A stretch of 18,682 nucleotides of DNA from a virus. Its lineage: Duplodnaviria > Heunggongvirae > Uroviricota > Caudoviricetes. Within the stretch, counting starts at the first letter, position 1. Each line of letters starts with the position of its first letter. Made by a program: the position numbers and the translations under genes. The stretch is taken from the IMG/VR virus record IMGVR_UViG_2778261570_000014, one strand, 5' to 3'. Shown piece after piece: positions 1,574 through 18,120 of the stretch. Below the pieces are notes generated by a model. That model made no database searches. It saw only the letters and a list, made by a program, of their open reading frames with translations, and was not told the DNA's origin.

Positions 1574-1638
1574 ACGAACATAGCCCCTTCATAAGCAATG
1601 AACCAAAGGAGAGTATGCTCAGTTTGTGATTTCCGTTG

Positions 1639-4330: not shown

Positions 4331-7300
4331 TTAATCCTCAAGCAGAGCATCCAGCGACTGGTCATTAATAGTTGTGCTCGCACGTGGTCGCGGCTGCGGC
4401 TGCGATGTTTTGACAACATTATCCGGATCGCCTTTTGTATTGTTCTTGTTCACATTCAGCAGATCGTTCAGGATAGAGCAGATGTTATCCAGCGCCTTCA
4501 ACATAGCAGGATCGTTATTTATAGTGTCAGTAGTTAATGGTTGTCTTATTCCGCTTCGTGCGAGATCGGTTACAGTAGGGAGTTGTGGCGGCATAGCAAG
4601 AAAAGGTTCTTGCACAGCTGAAGCAGAGCCAAATATGGCGTTATTGGCACCAGTTGCTATTCCCCTAATGCTATTAGCGGTTTGTTGAATCCCCCCATTC
4701 AGCCAGTCTCCAACATTTCTTGTTAATGGGCTAATAGCTCGCGCAATCGCACTATTCTGCCCAGTAGACTGCATTACAAGATCGTTCAATATCCCTGTAC
4801 TATCAATCCCCCCAACAAGTCGTGAAAGGTTATCGCCAACGGCAGGAATTACTGCGGTTCCTGTCTGTTTAAGCCCTGACACCGTGGAATCAAATAGCGA
4901 ACCAAAGAAGCTCTTATCCTCACCTGTAACCACCTTGTAGCCGTTGTCATAAATCTGCACATCACTTGGTGCCGTGATAGTTCGTTTTCCAGAGGTAACT
5001 ACTGGCGCAGCTCCCGCCATAGCCTGGCTGATTGCTAGAGCCTGCTCCTGCTGTGGGGTTTTCGGTGCAGGCGCTGCAGACGAAAAGCCCGCCATAGCCT
5101 GGCTGATTGCTAGAGCCTGCTCCTGCTGTGGAGTTTTCGGTGCTGGCGCTGCAGATGAAAAGCCCGCCATAGCCTGGCTGATTGCTAGAGCCTGCTCCTG
5201 CTGTGGAGTTTTCGGTGCTGGCGCTGCAGATGAAAAGCCCGCCATAGCCTGGCTGATTGCTAGAGCCTGCTCCTGCTGTGGAGTTTTCGGTGCTGGCGCT
5301 GCAGATGAAAAGCCCGCCATAGCCTGGCTGATTGCTAGAGCCTGCTCCTGCTGTGGAGTTTTCGGAGTAGAAGGGGATACTTGATCTCCCGGAAGTAGAT
5401 CAATGATTTCTGTATCGTGATTAACAGTGCGTTTTTGTTGTATGGCTGTTGCGATATCAGCCGCTTGAGAAGCTTTTTTAAATCCAAAAGATTTACCGGT
5501 TAAGCCGGATATCTTTTCAGTAAGAGCCTGATCCATTCCTTTCGCTTTTTCGGAAAGCGAAGATATAGAACCAAACGAAGTAGCCAACGCAAAATCCTTT
5601 ACCAGGTCCAGACTTGTTCCAGCAAGGCTGGTAGCCGCGCCGCCAAATAAATTACTTGCACCACTGATTCCGCTTTCATTTATTGCGATTAACCGCTCAA
5701 GCAAACTCGATGGAGAGCCGGTATTAACATCAGCGTTCTCTGGATTAATCGGTTGTGGTTGGTTACCTGTTTTTTGTGGCTTTTTGACTGCCTGGGCATG
5801 TTGTGCAACCTCAATTGGCTGTTGTGTTGCTGTCGGAACGGCATTCAAAACTGGTTGAGCTGGAGATTTTCCATTAGCATATTTTACCTTGCGACCAACA
5901 CTATATTGCGAATCGCGGGCAATTAGCTGACCACCATTTTCTTTCTGAATTTTATTAATCCGCGCCAATGTTTCGTCAGAGAATTGTCCCTCCCATAGAC
6001 CAGTGTTTGTGTTAAATGCTCCAAGTGCGTTCTTAATGAACTCATTATTAACTGCCGGATTTCCGCCTTCTTTCGTCGCAATTGCACGAACTAATTGCGT
6101 CATAACCTCTGGTTTGCTGACATCTATTTTTTCATTAGGCGATACACCAAGATATTTACTGACGTTATCAATATATTGGTTAGTATTGTTCTCATTTGGC
6201 GGTGCCCATTTTGAAATGATGCTGGATACCGTCTGTAACTTCTGATATCCCGCTGCGGCACTGGTGCCGTTGTAATAGCTGGAAACCTGGTTTGCCAGTG
6301 CCCTGATCCCTTCTTCAGGTGTGTTAAATCGCGCAAAACGTTGTTCACCTTTTGCATTTGGCGATTCCAGCGTCGCCCCTTCCTGGTTGGCAAAAACAAG
6401 ATTGCCGAGATTATTATTTCGGTAATTGCGGTTTTTAGCGTTGCTGCCGCCAATATTCAGATCCGCTGCAATGGTGTTGTTGGCAGGTGAACTAAATTCA
6501 GTTGGAGAAGTATACCCGTGCTCACCAACTCCATCCTCGCCATTACGCCCACCTTGTAATTGTTCACCTAGAGAATGAATCGCATCGACAGTTTTTTTGG
6601 TGCCGTCTTCAACAGCTTTTTTTACTTGTTTCGTGTTTTCGTCAGTGGATAAAAATGTATCCTTAAGGCTACCAAAAACAGATTTGGTGATATCTACCGC
6701 GCCGTTAACACCACGAGCAATATCTCCGGTATCAAAATTCTGAAGTTTTTCACCTGCTCTTTCAAATCCTAGCGCAGAAATTCCTTTCCCTATCAAGTTC
6801 GTTGCGCCCGACACCAAGCCCCCCATATCGAGCACATTAGCTGTTGCGTAAGCCGTTTTTTGCTGTTCGGCTACAGCATCATCGTCACTTAATCCAAAGG
6901 CTGCCTTTTGCGCATCTGTATCAGTGTAACCATCTATAGCGTCATATCCCGCCATAGCCAGCGAACCGATGATAGGGATAGCTCTTGCAGCTGTAGAAGC
7001 AGCTGATTTAACACCTATTTTTGCAGCACTTTTGAGGGCTACGGATTCGGTTTTTTTCTTTGCAACAGTTTCACCTGTTTTAACTGTGGCCTCTTCGGCA
7101 ACAACACCTGCTGGCTTAACTGCCTTTGCTGTGTTTTTTGTTTCTTTAGCAATACCCTTAGATGCGTCGCTTGTGGTGCTGATGTCTTTGGCTTTACTAA
7201 CCTTTGTTTTAACAGTCTTTGCAGCTCCGGCACCAGCTCCAGCAGCAGCGGTTCCGGCAGCGGCTTTTTCACCAACAGTAAGGGCTTTTTTCCCCAGATT

Positions 7301-8461
7301 GCGACCTTTCCTTTTCGGTTTGTTCCGTTTATTTTTACCAGCCTGATCGCCAATATTGATTTTATTTCTTCTGCTTGCTCGATTTCTCCAGAGATCACTT
7401 AAGCCGAACTTATTCCCAGAAGATACTGATTTGCGTAGCTTAACTACTTCGTCGGAGACATTTTCCAGACCATCAATTATTTTGTTGTCATTGGTCTGAA
7501 GAATTTTTGTTTGCTCTTCTACTGCTTGTGCTGATTTTGTCTCAACAGCATTATTAAATGCTGTTGCAGAGGTTGCTTTTTGAGTATTAACCACCGCCGG
7601 ATAAGTGATAGCTGGAGATGTCGCTTTCGAAGGTGAAGCCTCACCTTTCCCCTTTTCTACCCATTCTTTAAGAGATTCTGCTTTACCTGTGATCTCTTTA
7701 GTAATGTCGTACATGCCGCGAGCAGCCATCCACAACGGACCACCAGCGCCAACACCTGCGGCATCTGTTAAAGACTCTTCACTGGAAGACTGATTGCCAT
7801 CTACCCCTATAATGGAGCCTAATTTCCGGAGGAAGCCTTCTTGTAGTTTGGCGTCGGCCTTATGTGCTTTCTGCCATTCTTTTTTTCTGGCTATATCTTC
7901 GTTGTTTTTCTGGGATACAAAGCGTCCGTTACTATCCCGAAGCGGTCCTTTTTGGCTTTGGGGGGATTGTGGTTCAAGAGGAGCAGAATTAGCGGCTAAT
8001 GGCACAGAACCTTTCAACTTTTGGGCTGACTGGCGTGATGACGCAAAATGAACGCGCTCTGATGTGTTGGTTGCAACAATGAGACGTTCTTCTCCGTTGT
8101 TGACCTGCGTCCTCCCTTTTTTCATCGGAAGGCGTTTTATATATGGGTTAGCTTGGGTATTCTTGGCATCATCAGAGACATAGGGTTCGCTTGCTATGAG
8201 TCTACGGGATAGTCTTTGACTTACTTTACCTTGATTTTCACCAAGTTGAGTTATAGACCCTCTACCAGAGAGAATGGCGTCTTTGATCTCAGCAAGAGCG
8301 TTAAGTTCGTTTGTGCTCGCCCCCTGAATAGCGTCAATTATTGCGATACGGTCTTTATTCTCTTTCAAAATAACCTCTCTTTTGCCAGCGGCGATCAACG
8401 TTTCCCGGCTTGAGCTTTGTATTTTTCTTCCAGGGCTTTTGACATATGGAGTGCTCGCCAT
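4331..8461 (-). CDS. Large virion protein (1376 aa), tape-measure-like or structural injection protein
   Basis: Long ORF immediately upstream of the baseplate genes. Contains a Lys/Ala/Gly-rich low-complexity region, a globular segment (NNLGNLVFANQEG...GIRALANQV...WAPPNENNT...) and five 25-aa tandem repeats. ATG at 8461. Confidence 0.6.
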   Translation of the reverse strand: MASTPYVKSPGRKIQSSSRETLIAAGKREVILKENKDRIAIIDAIQGASTNELNALAEIKDAILSGRGSITQLGENQGKVSQRLSRRLIASEPYVSDDAKNTQANPYIKRLPMKKGRTQVNNGEERLIVATNTSERVHFASSRQSAQKLKGSVPLAANSAPLEPQSPQSQKGPLRDSNGRFVSQKNNEDIARKKEWQKAHKADAKLQEGFLRKLGSIIGVDGNQSSSEESLTDAAGVGAGGPLWMAARGMYDITKEITGKAESLKEWVEKGKGEASPSKATSPAITYPAVVNTQKATSATAFNNAVETKSAQAVEEQTKILQTNDNKIIDGLENVSDEVVKLRKSVSSGNKFGLSDLWRNRASRRNKINIGDQAGKNKRNKPKRKGRNLGKKALTVGEKAAAGTAAAGAGAGAAKTVKTKVSKAKDISTTSDASKGIAKETKNTAKAVKPAGVVAEEATVKTGETVAKKKTESVALKSAAKIGVKSAASTAARAIPIIGSLAMAGYDAIDGYTDTDAQKAAFGLSDDDAVAEQQKTAYATANVLDMGGLVSGATNLIGKGISALGFERAGEKLQNFDTGDIARGVNGAVDITKSVFGSLKDTFLSTDENTKQVKKAVEDGTKKTVDAIHSLGEQLQGGRNGEDGVGEHGYTSPTEFSSPANNTIAADLNIGGSNAKNRNYRNNNLGNLVFANQEGATLESPNAKGEQRFARFNTPEEGIRALANQVSSYYNGTSAAAGYQKLQTVSSIISKWAPPNENNTNQYIDNVSKYLGVSPNEKIDVSKPEVMTQLVRAIATKEGGNPAVNNEFIKNALGAFNTNTGLWEGQFSDETLARINKIQKENGGQLIARDSQYSVGRKVKYANGKSPAQPVLNAVPTATQQPIEVAQHAQAVKKPQKTGNQPQPINPENADVNTGSPSSLLERLIAINESGISGASNLFGGAATSLAGTSLDLVKDFALATSFGSISSLSEKAKGMDQALTEKISGLTGKSFGFKKASQAADIATAIQQKRTVNHDTEIIDLLPGDQVSPSTPKTPQQEQALAISQAMAGFSSAAPAPKTPQQEQALAISQAMAGFSSAAPAPKTPQQEQALAISQAMAGFSSAAPAPKTPQQEQALAISQAMAGFSSAAPAPKTPQQEQALAISQAMAGAAPVVTSGKRTITAPSDVQIYDNGYKVVTGEDKSFFGSLFDSTVSGLKQTGTAVIPAVGDNLSRLVGGIDSTGILNDLVMQSTGQNSAIARAISPLTRNVGDWLNGGIQQTANSIRGIATGANNAIFGSASAVQEPFLAMPPQLPTVTDLARSGIRQPLTTDTINNDPAMLKALDNICSILNDLLNVNKNNTKGDPDNVVKTSQPQPRPRASTTINDQSLDALLED
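5010..5366 (-). repeat. Tandem direct repeat, 75-bp unit in about 4.75 copies, inside the large virion protein gene
   Basis: GCCATAGCC recurs at 5016, 5091, 5166, 5241 and 5316 (period exactly 75). The middle copies are identical and the first differs at a few positions. Encodes (APAPKTPQQEQALAISQAMAGFSSA)n in frame. Confidence 0.9.
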
Positions 8462-8515: not shown

Positions 8516-9337
8516 TTAATAATGGTTAGCCATCCATTCAGATCTAATTGATGGGATAAACTCTCTATTGAGAAAGGGGACGTACAGTGTGGTTGTCACA
8601 TCTGCACCCTCCTTAGCGTTTTTGCAATGTTGCGGAGGCAGGATCAGTCGGCTTGAGCCTCTCTCAATAGACATTTTCAGGCCGTGGCGTAGGTCTTTTT
8701 GCATAAGCTGTATGCGAGCCACAAGCGGGGTAAATTCGGTTTCAAGCGCCATGCTTTCAATGATGTCAAAGCGTCGGTTAGCGGCCTGCGTGAAGTCCTC
8801 CGGATCGTCTTCAAGCGCCGTGCATAAAGCGAGTTCAGCAATTCGCATCCGTGCTACGCCAGCACTGTATTCGGGAGTTTTCATATCAGGAAGTGACGCT
8901 CGCATTCGTTCAAGGAGTTCCGCGCCTTTCCCGGTTAATGGTTTAAGTATCCAGTCAGTTGGTACTCCATTTACTGGTACGTTGGTTTTCACGTAAGGAG
9001 GTACAGTGAGTATTTCTACTGTTTGGGCCAGGTCGCTCAGGTTAATATCTGCATGATGCGTATTACCGCAGTGACTGCACTCATAGGAGTAGGTCATTAC
9101 TGCATCGGGGCGCGAATTAACAAATATCCACCAAAGAGCAGTTCTGCGGTCCTGAACTGTCCAGTTAGCACTGTCGTTAATTTCACCATCCTGCATAGAG
9201 TTAAGGTACTCTGTAGTCGTTGCCTCATCTTCTGCCGGGTTCAGGTCAGAATATTTCAGCGCATCCTTCACGGTAGGGGCGTGGAACTGAATTTCTGTCT
9301 CAGGACGGGAAGGCAATGGGAATTTTGGAATGTTCAA
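8516..9337 (-). CDS. Hypothetical protein (273 aa) with a C-x2-C...HH...N motif; divergently oriented from repA
   Basis: ORF with apparent TTG start at 9337 and a GGAGG Shine-Dalgarno 5 nt upstream; first in-frame Met is about residue 47. Contains YECSHCGNTHHADINL. Function unknown. Confidence 0.5.
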   Translation of the reverse strand: MNIPKFPLPSRPETEIQFHAPTVKDALKYSDLNPAEDEATTTEYLNSMQDGEINDSANWTVQDRRTALWWIFVNSRPDAVMTYSYECSHCGNTHHADINLSDLAQTVEILTVPPYVKTNVPVNGVPTDWILKPLTGKGAELLERMRASLPDMKTPEYSAGVARMRIAELALCTALEDDPEDFTQAANRRFDIIESMALETEFTPLVARIQLMQKDLRHGLKMSIERGSSRLILPPQHCKNAKEGADVTTTLYVPFLNREFIPSIRSEWMANHY

Positions 9338-9442
9338 TTATTCCTCCGAAAAGCAGGTATCTGTTCATTTTCCAGAGGATAGGGAGTGTGTGATTTGCGA
9401 TGGGGATTGAATGAAGATCTTTGCCGGTCGAGAAGCGATTAT

Positions 9443-9461
9443 TGAGGGTGATTTTTACACC
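9443..9461 (+). promoter_or_regulatory. Inverted iteron copy upstream of the origin, probable RepA operator
   Basis: TGAGGGTGATTTTTACACC is the reverse complement of the iteron consensus with two mismatches. Confidence 0.5.
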
Positions 9462-9479
9462 TTAAGTGACGCTACTCAC

Positions 9480-9488
9480 ATATCCACA
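9480..9488 (+). promoter_or_regulatory. DnaA-box-like site (ATATCCACA, 8/9 match to TTATNCACA)
   Basis: Seen in sequence directly next to the AT-rich tract and iterons, the usual Rep_3 origin layout. Confidence 0.45.
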
Positions 9489-9545
9489 GAGTATTTTTAT
9501 AAACCTTTTTCCATTTTTAATCCTTTTTAGATCCTTTTTAGGCGT
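9489..9545 (+). promoter_or_regulatory. AT-rich tract with short phased CCTTTTT-type repeats, candidate DNA-unwinding element
   Basis: CCTTTTTCC, ATTTTTAA and TCCTTTTTAG (twice, 11 bp apart) between the DnaA-box-like site and the iterons. Confidence 0.45.
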
Positions 9546-9583
9546 CGCTGGAGCCAGTAGTGGCGCGGGCTGTAGAGGAGGCT

Positions 9584-9701
9584 GGTGTAAGATTTGCCCT
9601 CAATTAAATACGATCGGTGTAAGATTTGCCCTCAGAAGGTGTAAGATTTGCCCTCAAAAGGTGTAGTAATTGCCCTCAAAGTGGTGTAAAAATTGCCCTC
9701 A
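9584..9701 (+). repeat. Iteron array: five direct 19-bp repeats (consensus GGTGTAAGATTTGCCCTCA) upstream of repA
   Basis: Copies at 9584-9602, 9616-9634, 9638-9656, 9660-9678 and 9683-9701. The first three are identical; copies 4 and 5 differ at 2-3 positions. Spacing 32, 22, 22, 23 bp. Confidence 0.85.
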
Positions 9702-9725
9702 CCATTTGAAGGATCACACAGGGTT

Positions 9726-10481
9726 ATGAACAGAGCGGAATTAACAGCAAAAGCCGTCAGCCTGATTGAGTCAGCGACACCTATTAGTCGTAGTCTGGCA
9801 CAAGCCAATGAGATCACGGAGGCTGCTTATCACCTGACTCGCGACCAAAAGCGACTGTTGTTTATTGTGGTGGGAAGACTTCGCTATGCTTCTAAGGATG
9901 GCGTTCTTGGTTCAGGTGCCTGTGAGTTGACGGTCAACGAATATGCAGAGATGTATAATTTGCCCTCTGCTGAAGCCAGCAAGGATATTCGTAAGGCCAT
10001 TTCAGGGCTTAGCGAGAAGAAAGTTACGATATATAACCCTGATGAATCGACCGAATCAGAAGACAGTTATGAGTCTTATCCCTGGATGATTAAGGATGCC
10101 TATTCACCACGGCGCGGGACTTACATTATTCATCTTAATCCATATCTCATGCCGTTTTTTACTCTGCTTGATAAGAGATTCACAAGGCTGAATTTTACCG
10201 AAGTATCTCGCCTTACAAATCCTTATTCTATGCGGCTTTATGAGTCCTTATGCCAGTACAGGAAGGATGATGGAAGCGGCTTTGCCATACTTGGCGTCGA
10301 ATGGATGCGGGAGCGTTATGGGTTACCAAAAAGCTATCAGCGGTATGCCGAATTTAAGAGAAGTTTTTTAACGAAGGCTGTAGCAGAGATTGAAAAAAAT
10401 ACAAAAATGAAAATAGTCTTCTCAGAGGTGACGGAAGGCGGCAAAGTTACCAGGATAAAATTTACCTATCAGCAGTCTTAA
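9726..10481 (+). CDS. repA: Replication initiator RepA, Rep_3 family (iteron-binding)
   Basis: 251 aa from ATG 9726 (the ORF track starts at an in-frame TTG at 9693 inside iteron 5). Flanked by iterons; resembles pSC101 RepA from memory (LTRDQKRLLFIVVG..., NPYSMRLYESL..., C-terminal KVTRIKFTY). Only gene on the plus strand in a minus-strand cluster. Confidence 0.85.
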   Translation: MNRAELTAKAVSLIESATPISRSLAQANEITEAAYHLTRDQKRLLFIVVGRLRYASKDGVLGSGACELTVNEYAEMYNLPSAEASKDIRKAISGLSEKKVTIYNPDESTESEDSYESYPWMIKDAYSPRRGTYIIHLNPYLMPFFTLLDKRFTRLNFTEVSRLTNPYSMRLYESLCQYRKDDGSGFAILGVEWMRERYGLPKSYQRYAEFKRSFLTKAVAEIEKNTKMKIVFSEVTEGGKVTRIKFTYQQS

Positions 10482-10772
10482 GGGCAATTTTTACACCCCT
10501 CTCAAGGTGTAGAATTTGCCCTTAACGATCGGCAATTGAGGGTAATTTTTACATCTTAATTGCATGTATCTTGTTATTAGCAAGTTGTGTTTTTATATAA
10601 CGTATTGATATGTAAGGATTATGTAAAAAACGCCCTCAACCAATATCGTGCGTATCGTGCATTCTTATTGCGCTTTTTTATTATCATTCACTGTGTTAAC
10701 TGATTGATATTATTGAAATATGTAAAGAATGCCTTCATTGCAGATGGATTGATGATGTAAAAAATGCCCTCA
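10479..10772 (+). repeat. Downstream iteron cluster: at least six iteron-like sites, mixed orientation and degenerate, in an AT-rich region
   Basis: Inverted copy 10479-10497 overlapping the repA stop, direct 10506-10524, inverted 10537-10555, and degenerate direct copies at 10621-10638, 10720-10737 and 10754-10772. No ORF in this region. Confidence 0.7.
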
Positions 10773-10862
10773 AAATTGCGCTACCTTCCCTACCCGCTAT
10801 CGTTGAGGTCGTGGGTGCTGACGGGAAATGAGCAACCCTCCAGCACACATAATTAAAGCTAT

Positions 10863-11570
10863 TCAGAATTTGATCACTCCACTCACAGCCCCCTTTAACG
10901 CGCTTGTAGCCATGCCAGCGGCACCGTTGACCAAAGCAGAAACACCTGAGCCTGCGGATGTGTATTTCTGGAAAGTGATTGGATATGACAAGAACTCTGA
11001 CACCTGGTCTCGTGAGCGGGTGATTTCCCCAAGTTGAGTGGGGAATACGCGCATTTCCTCTTCCAGTTCTTTACCGCCATCCTGAGTTACCCGGTAGAGC
11101 CGGATCTTCATTAGATATTCAGGAGGAAGGTTTATTGTTCCGTCCGGGTTTGTCACGCGGGAACGACGCTCTTTGAACCAGTTCATGATCTTGCCGTCTT
11201 CGGTATCCCTTACGGTCATCGTGACTGGTCCGGCGGTGACGTAGGTTGGCTTGCTGAACTCTACGCTACCTATCACCTTGTTTTCTGTCTCGATATTTCC
11301 GCTGCTGTAGGTGATATCCTTCACGAACATATCGAAACCGTTCAGACCGTCCACTTCAACCGTCCACTGCCATCCCTGGGCGTAACGAATACGCATAGCG
11401 GCAGCAACAATATTTTTCCCGTAGGCAATATCGCTGCTGTAGTTCCCACTTACCCCGCCGCCGGATATTGCTTTATCCAGAATGTCGCTAATGAGGTTGC
11501 TGGTGAATGATTTTGTGTTAAATGACAGTGCGGTGGTCAACGTTCTGCCAACGCTGCTGAAAATACTCAC
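10863..11570 (-). CDS. Hypothetical virion or tail protein (235 aa)
   Basis: Co-oriented with the tail genes; apparent GTG start at 11570 with GGAGG upstream. No motif recognised. Confidence 0.5.
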   Translation of the reverse strand: MSIFSSVGRTLTTALSFNTKSFTSNLISDILDKAISGGGVSGNYSSDIAYGKNIVAAAMRIRYAQGWQWTVEVDGLNGFDMFVKDITYSSGNIETENKVIGSVEFSKPTYVTAGPVTMTVRDTEDGKIMNWFKERRSRVTNPDGTINLPPEYLMKIRLYRVTQDGGKELEEEMRVFPTQLGEITRSRDQVSEFLSYPITFQKYTSAGSGVSALVNGAAGMATSALKGAVSGVIKF

Positions 11571-12189: not shown

Positions 12190-12681
12190 TCACTCTACCC
12201 AGTTGTAAACAATACGCAGGGAAGGCTTAACGACCGCTGTTACGTCTTCGGATGAGAAGTCCACGGCGTCGGAATACACTTTGCAATGAGAATATGTGCG
12301 GATCAGACCTTTATGGTTACCGCTATTCGATTCAGCCGCCGCCTGTAAGGTAATTTCCAGATATTCTTTTCCGTATACCATCTGTTTTACAGCGGCGAGA
12401 ACTGCGCCTTCGATAGTTTCCGCGCATGTGACCTGAAATTCACCAGAGTTGCGTAATGGTCCGTGCTGGTTGAATTTCATGCCACCAGGGGCGTAATCCT
12501 CCACATCTTCACGTGTCATTTCTGGTAACTGAGCTGTACGAACTAGTACAGACAGATGTTCGTAACCCTTAATGGTCATCCAATATTCAGAACCAATAAG
12601 TTTTTCGCCTGCAGCCAGGTTTTTATTAAACCGGGATTTTAGAAAGGCCATATCGGCTTTTGTATTTGCAAAACCGGACAT
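12190..12681 (-). CDS. Tail tube protein, T4 gp19-like (163 aa)
   Basis: Same length as T4 gp19 and similar landmarks from memory (RTAQLPE vs KATALPAG; C-terminal ...VYNWVE vs ...LDYWE). Strong AGGAG Shine-Dalgarno; downstream of the sheath gene. Confidence 0.55.
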   Translation of the reverse strand: MSGFANTKADMAFLKSRFNKNLAAGEKLIGSEYWMTIKGYEHLSVLVRTAQLPEMTREDVEDYAPGGMKFNQHGPLRNSGEFQVTCAETIEGAVLAAVKQMVYGKEYLEITLQAAAESNSGNHKGLIRTYSHCKVYSDAVDFSSEDVTAVVKPSLRIVYNWVE

Positions 12682-17962: not shown

Positions 17963-18120
17963 GGTTAAGCCCTAAATTCGGGCGCGGCGTGAAGGTTCTT
18001 TTGACGGGCTAACAATACCTACTTTGTGATTTAGTCAATAGGTTTAGTAAAATAAAATCTATTAACACGCATGTTGTTATGTGATTTAATTTTAATTTTC
18101 TAACACAAATCATTAGAGTT
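17963..18120. promoter_or_regulatory. AT-rich divergent intergenic region, probable promoters for the capsid gene and the plus-strand gene
   Basis: Markedly AT-rich; TTGACG at 18001-18006; TGTGATTTA occurs twice (about 18026 and 18081). No confident -10/-35 assignment. Confidence 0.35.

Follow-up and report, generated by a model that had tools for sequence, protein, structure and literature searches.

We report that the 273-codon reading frame lying between sit and repA in an 18,682-nucleotide stretch of Caudoviricetes DNA (IMG/VR record IMGVR_UViG_2778261570_000014; hereafter the window, meaning the whole stretch) is almost certainly an ortholog of PmgB, a protein of phage P1, and that PmgB very probably belongs, on sequence profiles and predicted folds, to the superfamily of the phage T4 hub "catalysts" gp51 and gp26. 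The window represents part of a D6-like phage-plasmid of the P1 family. Between positions 8400 and 9700 it is 98.9% identical to Escherichia phage D6, and its gene order is that of the P1 tail/baseplate region (R, 16, bplA, pmgA, sit, pmgB, then a replicon, followed by tub, pmgC, bplB, pmgG, 21, 22 and 23). A block of the D6 type was found in 121 plasmid records of ~90 kb each from E. coli, Salmonella and Shigella, nearly all of which are typed as non-mobilizable. The gene is no novelty in itself: it is an ordinary and already annotated one, pmgB of a D6/P1-type phage-plasmid. An earlier note on this DNA had described a Cys/His-motif protein encoded divergently from repA and had left the choice between a replicon accessory factor and a tail-assembly protein; as an ortholog of P1 PmgB, it is the second.

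The orthology was established over the entire length of the protein. P1 PmgB aligns with the window protein at 40% identity (BLASTP, E 1e-70, full length), the phrog_1854 ("PmgB-like") profile is matched with E 1.2e-134 by residues 1-273 against 276 profile positions, and the D6 GenBank entry contains the identical 822-nt coding sequence as orf41, labelled "PmgB-like". We found 87 homologs of the window protein. The family as a whole is narrow, with 168 clusters at E <= 1e-3 in a profile search of 1.84 billion representatives, and its named members come from elements of Enterobacterales, Aeromonas and Vibrionaceae. The P1 and window proteins conserve the same C-x2-C-x3-H...C residues, and both genes stand directly upstream of sit in a tail/baseplate operon; the P1 protein differs in carrying 20 additional amino acids at its C-terminus. 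Database labels vary: the PHROG description "PmgB-like head morphogenesis" is misleading, given that the P1 phenotype is a tail defect, and PGAP names the gene product a "hypothetical protein".

The reading frame and its TTG start, both proposed in the earlier note, are real. The TTG codon (9337-9335) is preceded by a GGAGG sequence 5 nt upstream and directly abutted upstream by an in-frame TAA (9340-9338), so that a longer reading frame is impossible, and the coding sequence annotated in D6 begins at the same codon. The next in-frame ATG is codon 48, and a start there would delete the conserved N-terminus MxIPxFPLPS, which is kept in PmgB homologs down to 33% identity. The pmgB gene of an E. 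cloacae relative likewise starts with TTG, and a similar GGAG-TTG layout is found in relatives.

Essentiality, the tail-less phenotype and absence from the virion are known from work on P1 by others, and the remaining observations (orthology, similarity to gp51/gp26, residue conservation, motif distribution and synteny) are from the present analysis, from which we infer that the protein binds zinc, that its client is Sit or the hub, and that transcription depends on the late activator Lpa. In P1, knockout of pmgB abolished both infectious virions and complete tails, leaving only polytube and polysheath structures, and PmgB was not detected in virions by liquid chromatography coupled to tandem mass spectrometry (LC-MS/MS) (PMC9024508). 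A CRISPR interference screen of P1 scored pmgB as essential (PMC10695390). The baseplate proteins named in the 2026 electron cryo-microscopy (cryo-EM) study of P1 number ten (Tub, PmgG, gp6, gp5, UpfC, UpfB, Sit, the wedge of PmgA/gp16/BplA, the plug gp26, and the fibres), and PmgB goes unmentioned there (PMC12810830). Because of these knockout, screening, proteome and cryo-EM data, PmgB is taken to be an essential, non-virion tail assembly factor, and we assume that this carries over from P1 to its 40%-identical ortholog in the window.

The relationship to T4 emerged from profile comparisons. Pfam family PF12322 (T4_baseplate) takes in both T4 gp26 (215 bits) and gp51 (177 bits), and the window protein scores 23.8 bits on it over residues 12-104 (E 4.1e-5), which is 0.7 bits under the gathering threshold of 24.5 bits. 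A 174-aa fragment of the same protein has a precomputed PF12322 hit, 23 of the 31 PmgB family members match this family individually, mostly below threshold and with no other family recurring, and P0199, a distant member that matches the PmgB profile at E 8.5e-21, reaches 32.1 bits, above the cut-off. When locally built family alignments were compared with hhalign (185 sequences for PmgB, 91 for gp51, and a further alignment for the gp26 family), PmgB matched gp51 with a probability of 95.3% and E 2e-8 over 109 columns (PmgB 5-130, gp51 6-118), and C87 and C90 of PmgB fell on C85 and C88 of gp51. The match to the gp26 family was at 54% and confined to a 22-residue stretch, the Cys/His knuckle, with the gp26-gp51 control at 99.2%; against the single T4 gp26 sequence the PmgB family reached 15%, again in the knuckle only.

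Predicted structures agree with this assignment over a greater length. An AlphaFold2 model of PmgB from a 31-sequence alignment (mean predicted local distance difference test score, pLDDT, 92.5; predicted template modelling score, pTM, 0.89) was compared by Foldseek with BFVD, where predicted structures stand on both sides of the comparison, and gave 40 matches at E <= 1e-3. The best 30 mostly had template modelling (TM) scores of 0.5-0.64 over about 255-310 columns, most of them full-length, and many of the matches go by the name of "baseplate hub subunit" or by that of "baseplate hub assembly protein, bacteriophage T4-like". The fold comparison that the earlier note had proposed thus returned hub-assembly proteins, and homology to a tail-assembly family, which that note had named as evidence against its own replicon-centred reading, was indeed found. 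Sequence searches of the PDB gave nothing meaningful (best E 0.23 and 3.9 with the protein and the family profile as queries), Foldseek against the PDB gave no match with E < 1, and NCBIfam has no model for the window PmgB, P1 PmgB or T4 gp51.

We conclude that PmgB is very probably the P1/D6 counterpart of T4 gp51/gp26, nearer to gp51. From the profile alignments its N-terminal half can be called homologous with good confidence; the C-terminal half appears to resemble gp51/gp26 at the level of the predicted fold only. Like PmgB, gp51 has about 250-270 aa, is required for assembly, is absent from the particle and bears a second, distal Cys element. The two nonetheless share only ~15% sequence identity, and the distal ligands are a CC pair in gp51 as against the single C238 plus H94 in PmgB. 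Gene 51 is followed by genes 27 and 28 before gene 29, the tape-measure protein (TMP) gene, whereas pmgB adjoins the TMP gene directly. T4 gp26 shares a CxCG...H knuckle near residue 82, and its CPECGKTH near residue 187 resembles the CSHCGNTH of PmgB, but gp26, at 208 aa, is the shorter protein and also gives rise to an internal-start product, gp26'. In the 2022 study of P1, HHpred returned no relative for PmgB, and gp26 and gp51 were listed among the "missing" T4 counterparts (PMC9024508). The link between PmgB and gp51 points to PmgB as such a counterpart, a modest addition.

We propose that PmgB is quite probably a transient, non-virion factor for assembly of the hub and tape measure. PmgB, its fold held by a structural metal site, would act transiently while the central hub forms around the tape measure Sit and would then be released, and without it neither baseplate nor tail would be initiated. 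Sit, the P1 tape measure (PMC9024508; PMC12810830), may itself be the direct client, a proposal that we make tentatively. The pmgB stop codon lies at 8516 and the sit start at 8461, the pmgB-sit order is found in D6, P1 and five other lineages, and wherever the gene 3' of pmgB was recorded it was long and of TMP size (1140 to 1556 aa among the complete or measured ones).

It could be argued that PmgB is instead a structural part of the central baseplate hub, as was once proposed for T4 gp26, and that it is present at low copy and was overlooked by virion studies. Many of the structural neighbours in BFVD carry the name "baseplate hub subunit", a review of T4 cites genetic evidence that gp26 is possibly in the hub (PMC3004832), and several small low-copy baseplate proteins of P1 were likewise missed by mass spectrometry (PMC9024508). 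Yet PmgB, at 31 kDa, is not small and still went undetected by LC-MS/MS (PMC9024508), the 3.2 A-class cryo-EM work neither models it nor mentions it with the 10 baseplate proteins (PMC12810830), and by profile comparison it stands nearer to the non-virion catalyst gp51 (95.3%) than to gp26 (54%). A hub component is for these reasons quite improbable. The P1 authors suggested a tape-measure chaperone role since the gene precedes sit (PMC9024508). Taken in the classical sense of lambda gpG or the HK97-type tail-assembly chaperones (TACs), PmgB would coat Sit, keep it soluble and recruit tube subunits, and would not act on the hub. PmgB differs from these chaperones in having no significant sequence or fold score to them and no frameshift partner, in being far larger, and in carrying a Cys cluster that they lack. 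We consider this reading unlikely. A broader and speculative possibility, to which we give a little more weight though it too is unlikely, is that the PmgB/gp51/gp26 superfamily is a zinc-stabilized, enlarged form of the TAC fold with the tape measure protein as its client. If this were true, the T4 hub "catalysts" would be united with the lambda-type TACs, and the PmgB-Sit pair of P1/D6 would offer a simple two-gene system for a direct test of the long-unknown activity of gp51.

The Cys/His motif that had drawn attention to the protein, YECSHCGNTHHADINL, occupies residues 84-99 and is a real and conserved feature. Across 185 family members conservation stands at 97% for C87, 96% each for C90, H94 and C238, and 99% for H218, and position 93 varies (E/T/K/S/D). 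The two cysteine elements go together: 176 members have both the CxxC pair and C238, 6 have neither and 3 are discordant. The 6 members that lack the cluster form a Vibrio/Photobacterium subclade in which the rest of the protein is kept. In the model, C238 is placed at the end of the strand formed by residues 228-237, and split Cys clusters also occur in T4, at C82/C84 and C187/C190 in gp26 and at C85/C88 and C185/C186 in gp51. The zinc-binding reading offered by the earlier note gains support because C87, C90 and C238 are conserved and lost together. PmgB thus probably contains a structural zinc site, and conservation suggests a single zinc-type site joining two hairpins, its ligands most likely being the C87-x2-C90-x3-H94 knuckle and the distant C238.

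The same note had also compared the motif to a degenerate HNH signature. The local pattern C-x2-C-x2-HH-x4-N, on a predicted topology beta(80-86)-beta(93-99)-alpha(100-106), does recall a beta-beta-alpha-metal nuclease or a nucleic-acid-binding zinc finger, and PmgB has weak Pfam matches of the zinc-ribbon type (E 0.02-0.08). The would-be catalytic histidine is H93, however, the very residue that is not conserved; the aligned segment of gp51 contains no histidine; none of the 31 PmgB members matches an HNH Pfam family (E <= 5); and the loss of the whole cluster in the Vibrio/Photobacterium subclade is easier to reconcile with a structural than with a catalytic site. On these four counts the degenerate HNH reading fails, and we give scarcely any credence to a nuclease or nucleic-acid-binding finger at this position.

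The earlier note was right that pmgB diverges from repA and that an inverted iteron lies between them. The two genes are separated by a 355-bp region containing the origin, and 9442-10773 is a complete, self-contained iteron replicon, of which an AT-rich stretch is also part (Table 1). No partition genes adjoin this replicon in the window; those of D6 sit elsewhere. An involvement of PmgB in the replicon, either as an accessory factor or through control of its operon by RepA at the inverted iteron, might be suspected from this divergent arrangement, from the position of the iteron a mere 46 nt from the promoter box of pmgB described below, and from the conservation of the arrangement in the 121 plasmid records. 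Comparison with more distant relatives argues otherwise. In P1 (PmgB 40% identical to that of the window), a Serratia relative (59%) and a Xenorhabdus relative (50%), pmgB is preceded by tub at distances of 14, 11 and 11 nt, respectively, and in the P0010 lineage (66%) by tub at 77 nt, again without a replicon. In the P0015 lineage (61%) an unrelated, divergent gene for a 229-aa protein with no Pfam match stands upstream. Even the close relatives from K. variicola (86%) and E. cloacae (82%) have other modules at this place, RHH-ParA-Rep_3 and ParB-ParA-Rep_3, respectively, the latter with different iterons and a Rep without significant BLASTP similarity to RepA of the window (E 0.026). No particular replicon is thus inherited together with PmgB, since the contents of the junction differ among relatives.

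In the close relatives the flanking tail genes are collinear whether the junction holds another Rep_3 module, the gene for the 229-aa protein, no insert or an added IS200/IS605 element (tnpA and tnpB), which in some plasmids of E. coli lies between the replicon and tub. Judged from this synteny, the Rep_3 replicon is an independent module and a lineage-specific insertion at the tub|pmgB junction, and the promoter-bearing gap between these two genes appears to be where plasmid modules inserted, a hot spot or permissive docking site. The junction offers a concrete example of phage-plasmids swapping their plasmid parts. The closeness of pmgB and repA would thus reflect modular phage-plasmid evolution and not regulation, and the finding as originally posed carries little weight.

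Expression of pmgB can be accounted for by a phage signal. A candidate late promoter of a D6 type, consisting of the box AATCACACACT and a -10-like hexamer without a -35 element, ends 39 nt before the TTG. When the region upstream of pmgB was aligned with that of the E. cloacae relative, which has an unrelated origin, one island stood out as conserved, AAATCACACACT-N3-TATnCTC. The window contains AATCACAnAnT-N3-nAT.CT three times, in each case on the strand of the late genes. The complete D6 genome carries the exact box 7 times and the full site (box-N3-nAnnnT) 6 times, against 1.27 and 0.08 expected from first-order Markov simulations; two of the six sites had served to define the motif and four are independent. 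The full sites, at record positions 19216 (+) and 25240, 38134, 45510, 54143 and 72119 (-), precede orf16 (hub/lysozyme-like), prt (portal), R, pmgB, gene 23 and mat, and sites with one mismatch precede lydA (the position of P1 LPdar), ddrB, upfC and gene 7. Where measured, the distance from motif to first gene of a late operon is 36-50 nt. The replicon-free P0010 lineage and the relatives from E. cloacae and K. variicola retain the box upstream of pmgB, the P0015 lineage has it there with one mismatch, and it is absent where tub abuts pmgB. A terminator-like hairpin precedes the motif upstream of R and in the P0010 lineage, as it does at P1 LPs.

This arrangement departs from that of P1, whose late promoters LPs and LPdar have a 9-bp box, AAGTTACTT, followed by 4 nt and a -10 hexamer, and where pmgB has no such motif of its own: it is transcribed from LPsit, upstream of pmgC, which drives pmgC-tub-pmgB-sit with tub immediately before pmgB. 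In the window the replicon splits tub from pmgB, and the box before pmgB reads AATCACAnAnT in place of AAGTTACTT. The P1 box AAGTNACTT occurs in the window at a chance-level count, with no match upstream of pmgB, and a sigma-70 scan of the minus strand between 8300 and 10900 gave no promoter. A separate candidate, CACTTAAGGTG near the inverted iteron, was considered as an inverted repeat of the Lpa type and rejected, as it belongs to a 28-nt replicon repeat that is also found downstream of repA. D6 orf4 is an Lpa homolog, and pmgB-sit-pmgA-bplA-16 is probably a late operon transcribed from an activator-dependent promoter of its own, for which this homolog would presumably be the activator; late transcription from 9395-9376 would then run through all five genes.

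The earlier note had placed the pmgB promoter in the origin region, and within 9338-9480 it does lie. The candidate promoter nevertheless is located outside the origin itself, being a phage late motif 46 nt beyond the last iteron that is also kept in a replicon-free relative, and an effect of RepA through the inverted iteron is uncalled for. Expression independent of RepA, which that note had set beside tail-assembly homology as counting against it, is what the comparison of relatives suggests. The recurrence of the box before unrelated late operons, its retention beside other Rep_3/Par modules in the K. variicola and E. cloacae relatives, the absence of a sigma-70-like promoter on this strand and the tail defect of the P1 mutant all point the same way as the replicon-free orthologs, and we regard a replicon function or RepA control of pmgB as highly improbable. 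As a modest addition, the D6-type box (AATCACAnAnT-N3-nAnnnT) lets late operons be mapped in D6-like plasmids, of which ~120 are at hand from E. coli, Salmonella and Shigella.

Table 1. Features of the pmgB locus, the adjacent Rep_3 replicon and related sites in the window
Feature	Position	Strand	Remarks
pmgB coding sequence	8516..9337	-	273 aa, TTG start, TAA stop; ortholog (almost certainly) of P1 PmgB and D6 orf41
Shine-Dalgarno GGAGG	9343..9347	-	5 nt before TTG; direct sequence reading
Putative zinc knuckle, codons 87-94 (C-S-H-C-G-N-T-H)	9056..9079	-	Turn of predicted beta-hairpin, strands 80-86 and 93-99; from model and conservation
Codon C238, distal cysteine	8624..8626	-	Co-varies with CxxC; presumed third cysteine among the ligands of a single structural metal site
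sit, tape-measure/transglycosylase gene	4331..8461	-	Next in operon, 54 nt downstream of pmgB; presumed PmgB client
Candidate D6-type late promoter of pmgB	9376..9395	-	Box 9395-9385, 3 nt, -10-like TATCCT 9381-9376
Late-promoter motif before R	1612-1631	-	39 nt before R start; position of P1 LPs
Late-promoter motif before gene 23	18012-18031	-	50 nt before gene 23; 2 mismatches
Inverted iteron, one	9442-9461		46 nt upstream of pmgB promoter box
DnaA-box-like TGTGGATAT	9488-9480	-	
Direct iterons, five	9581-9700		
repA	9693-10481	+	Rep_3 initiator; Rep3_N + Rep3_C (WH1, WH2 domains)
Second iteron cluster, both orientations	10478-10773		Downstream of repA; resembles copy-control (incA-like) locus
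tub	10863-11570	-	
bplB	12190-12681	-	

Some further observations concern the neighbouring tail genes. The D6 annotation places the sit start 14 nt past the pmgB stop, which gives 13 extra N-terminal residues relative to the longest reading frame in the window (ATG 8461). Sit has 1376 aa in the window, whereas the D6 protein (85% identical) has 1260 aa and that of plasmid p92_MLI108-1 has 1676 aa, so that near-identical elements differ in the C-terminal length of their tape measures; the segment added in the window relative to D6 follows approximately residue 1030. Within sit, positions 5013-5365 hold a 75-nt (25-aa) tandem repeat in 4.7 copies of 98% identity. Both tub and bplB are called "tail tube protein" in the D6 and RefSeq annotations, and in the 2026 cryo-EM study of P1 Tub is the tube initiator and BplB the tail tube (PMC12810830).

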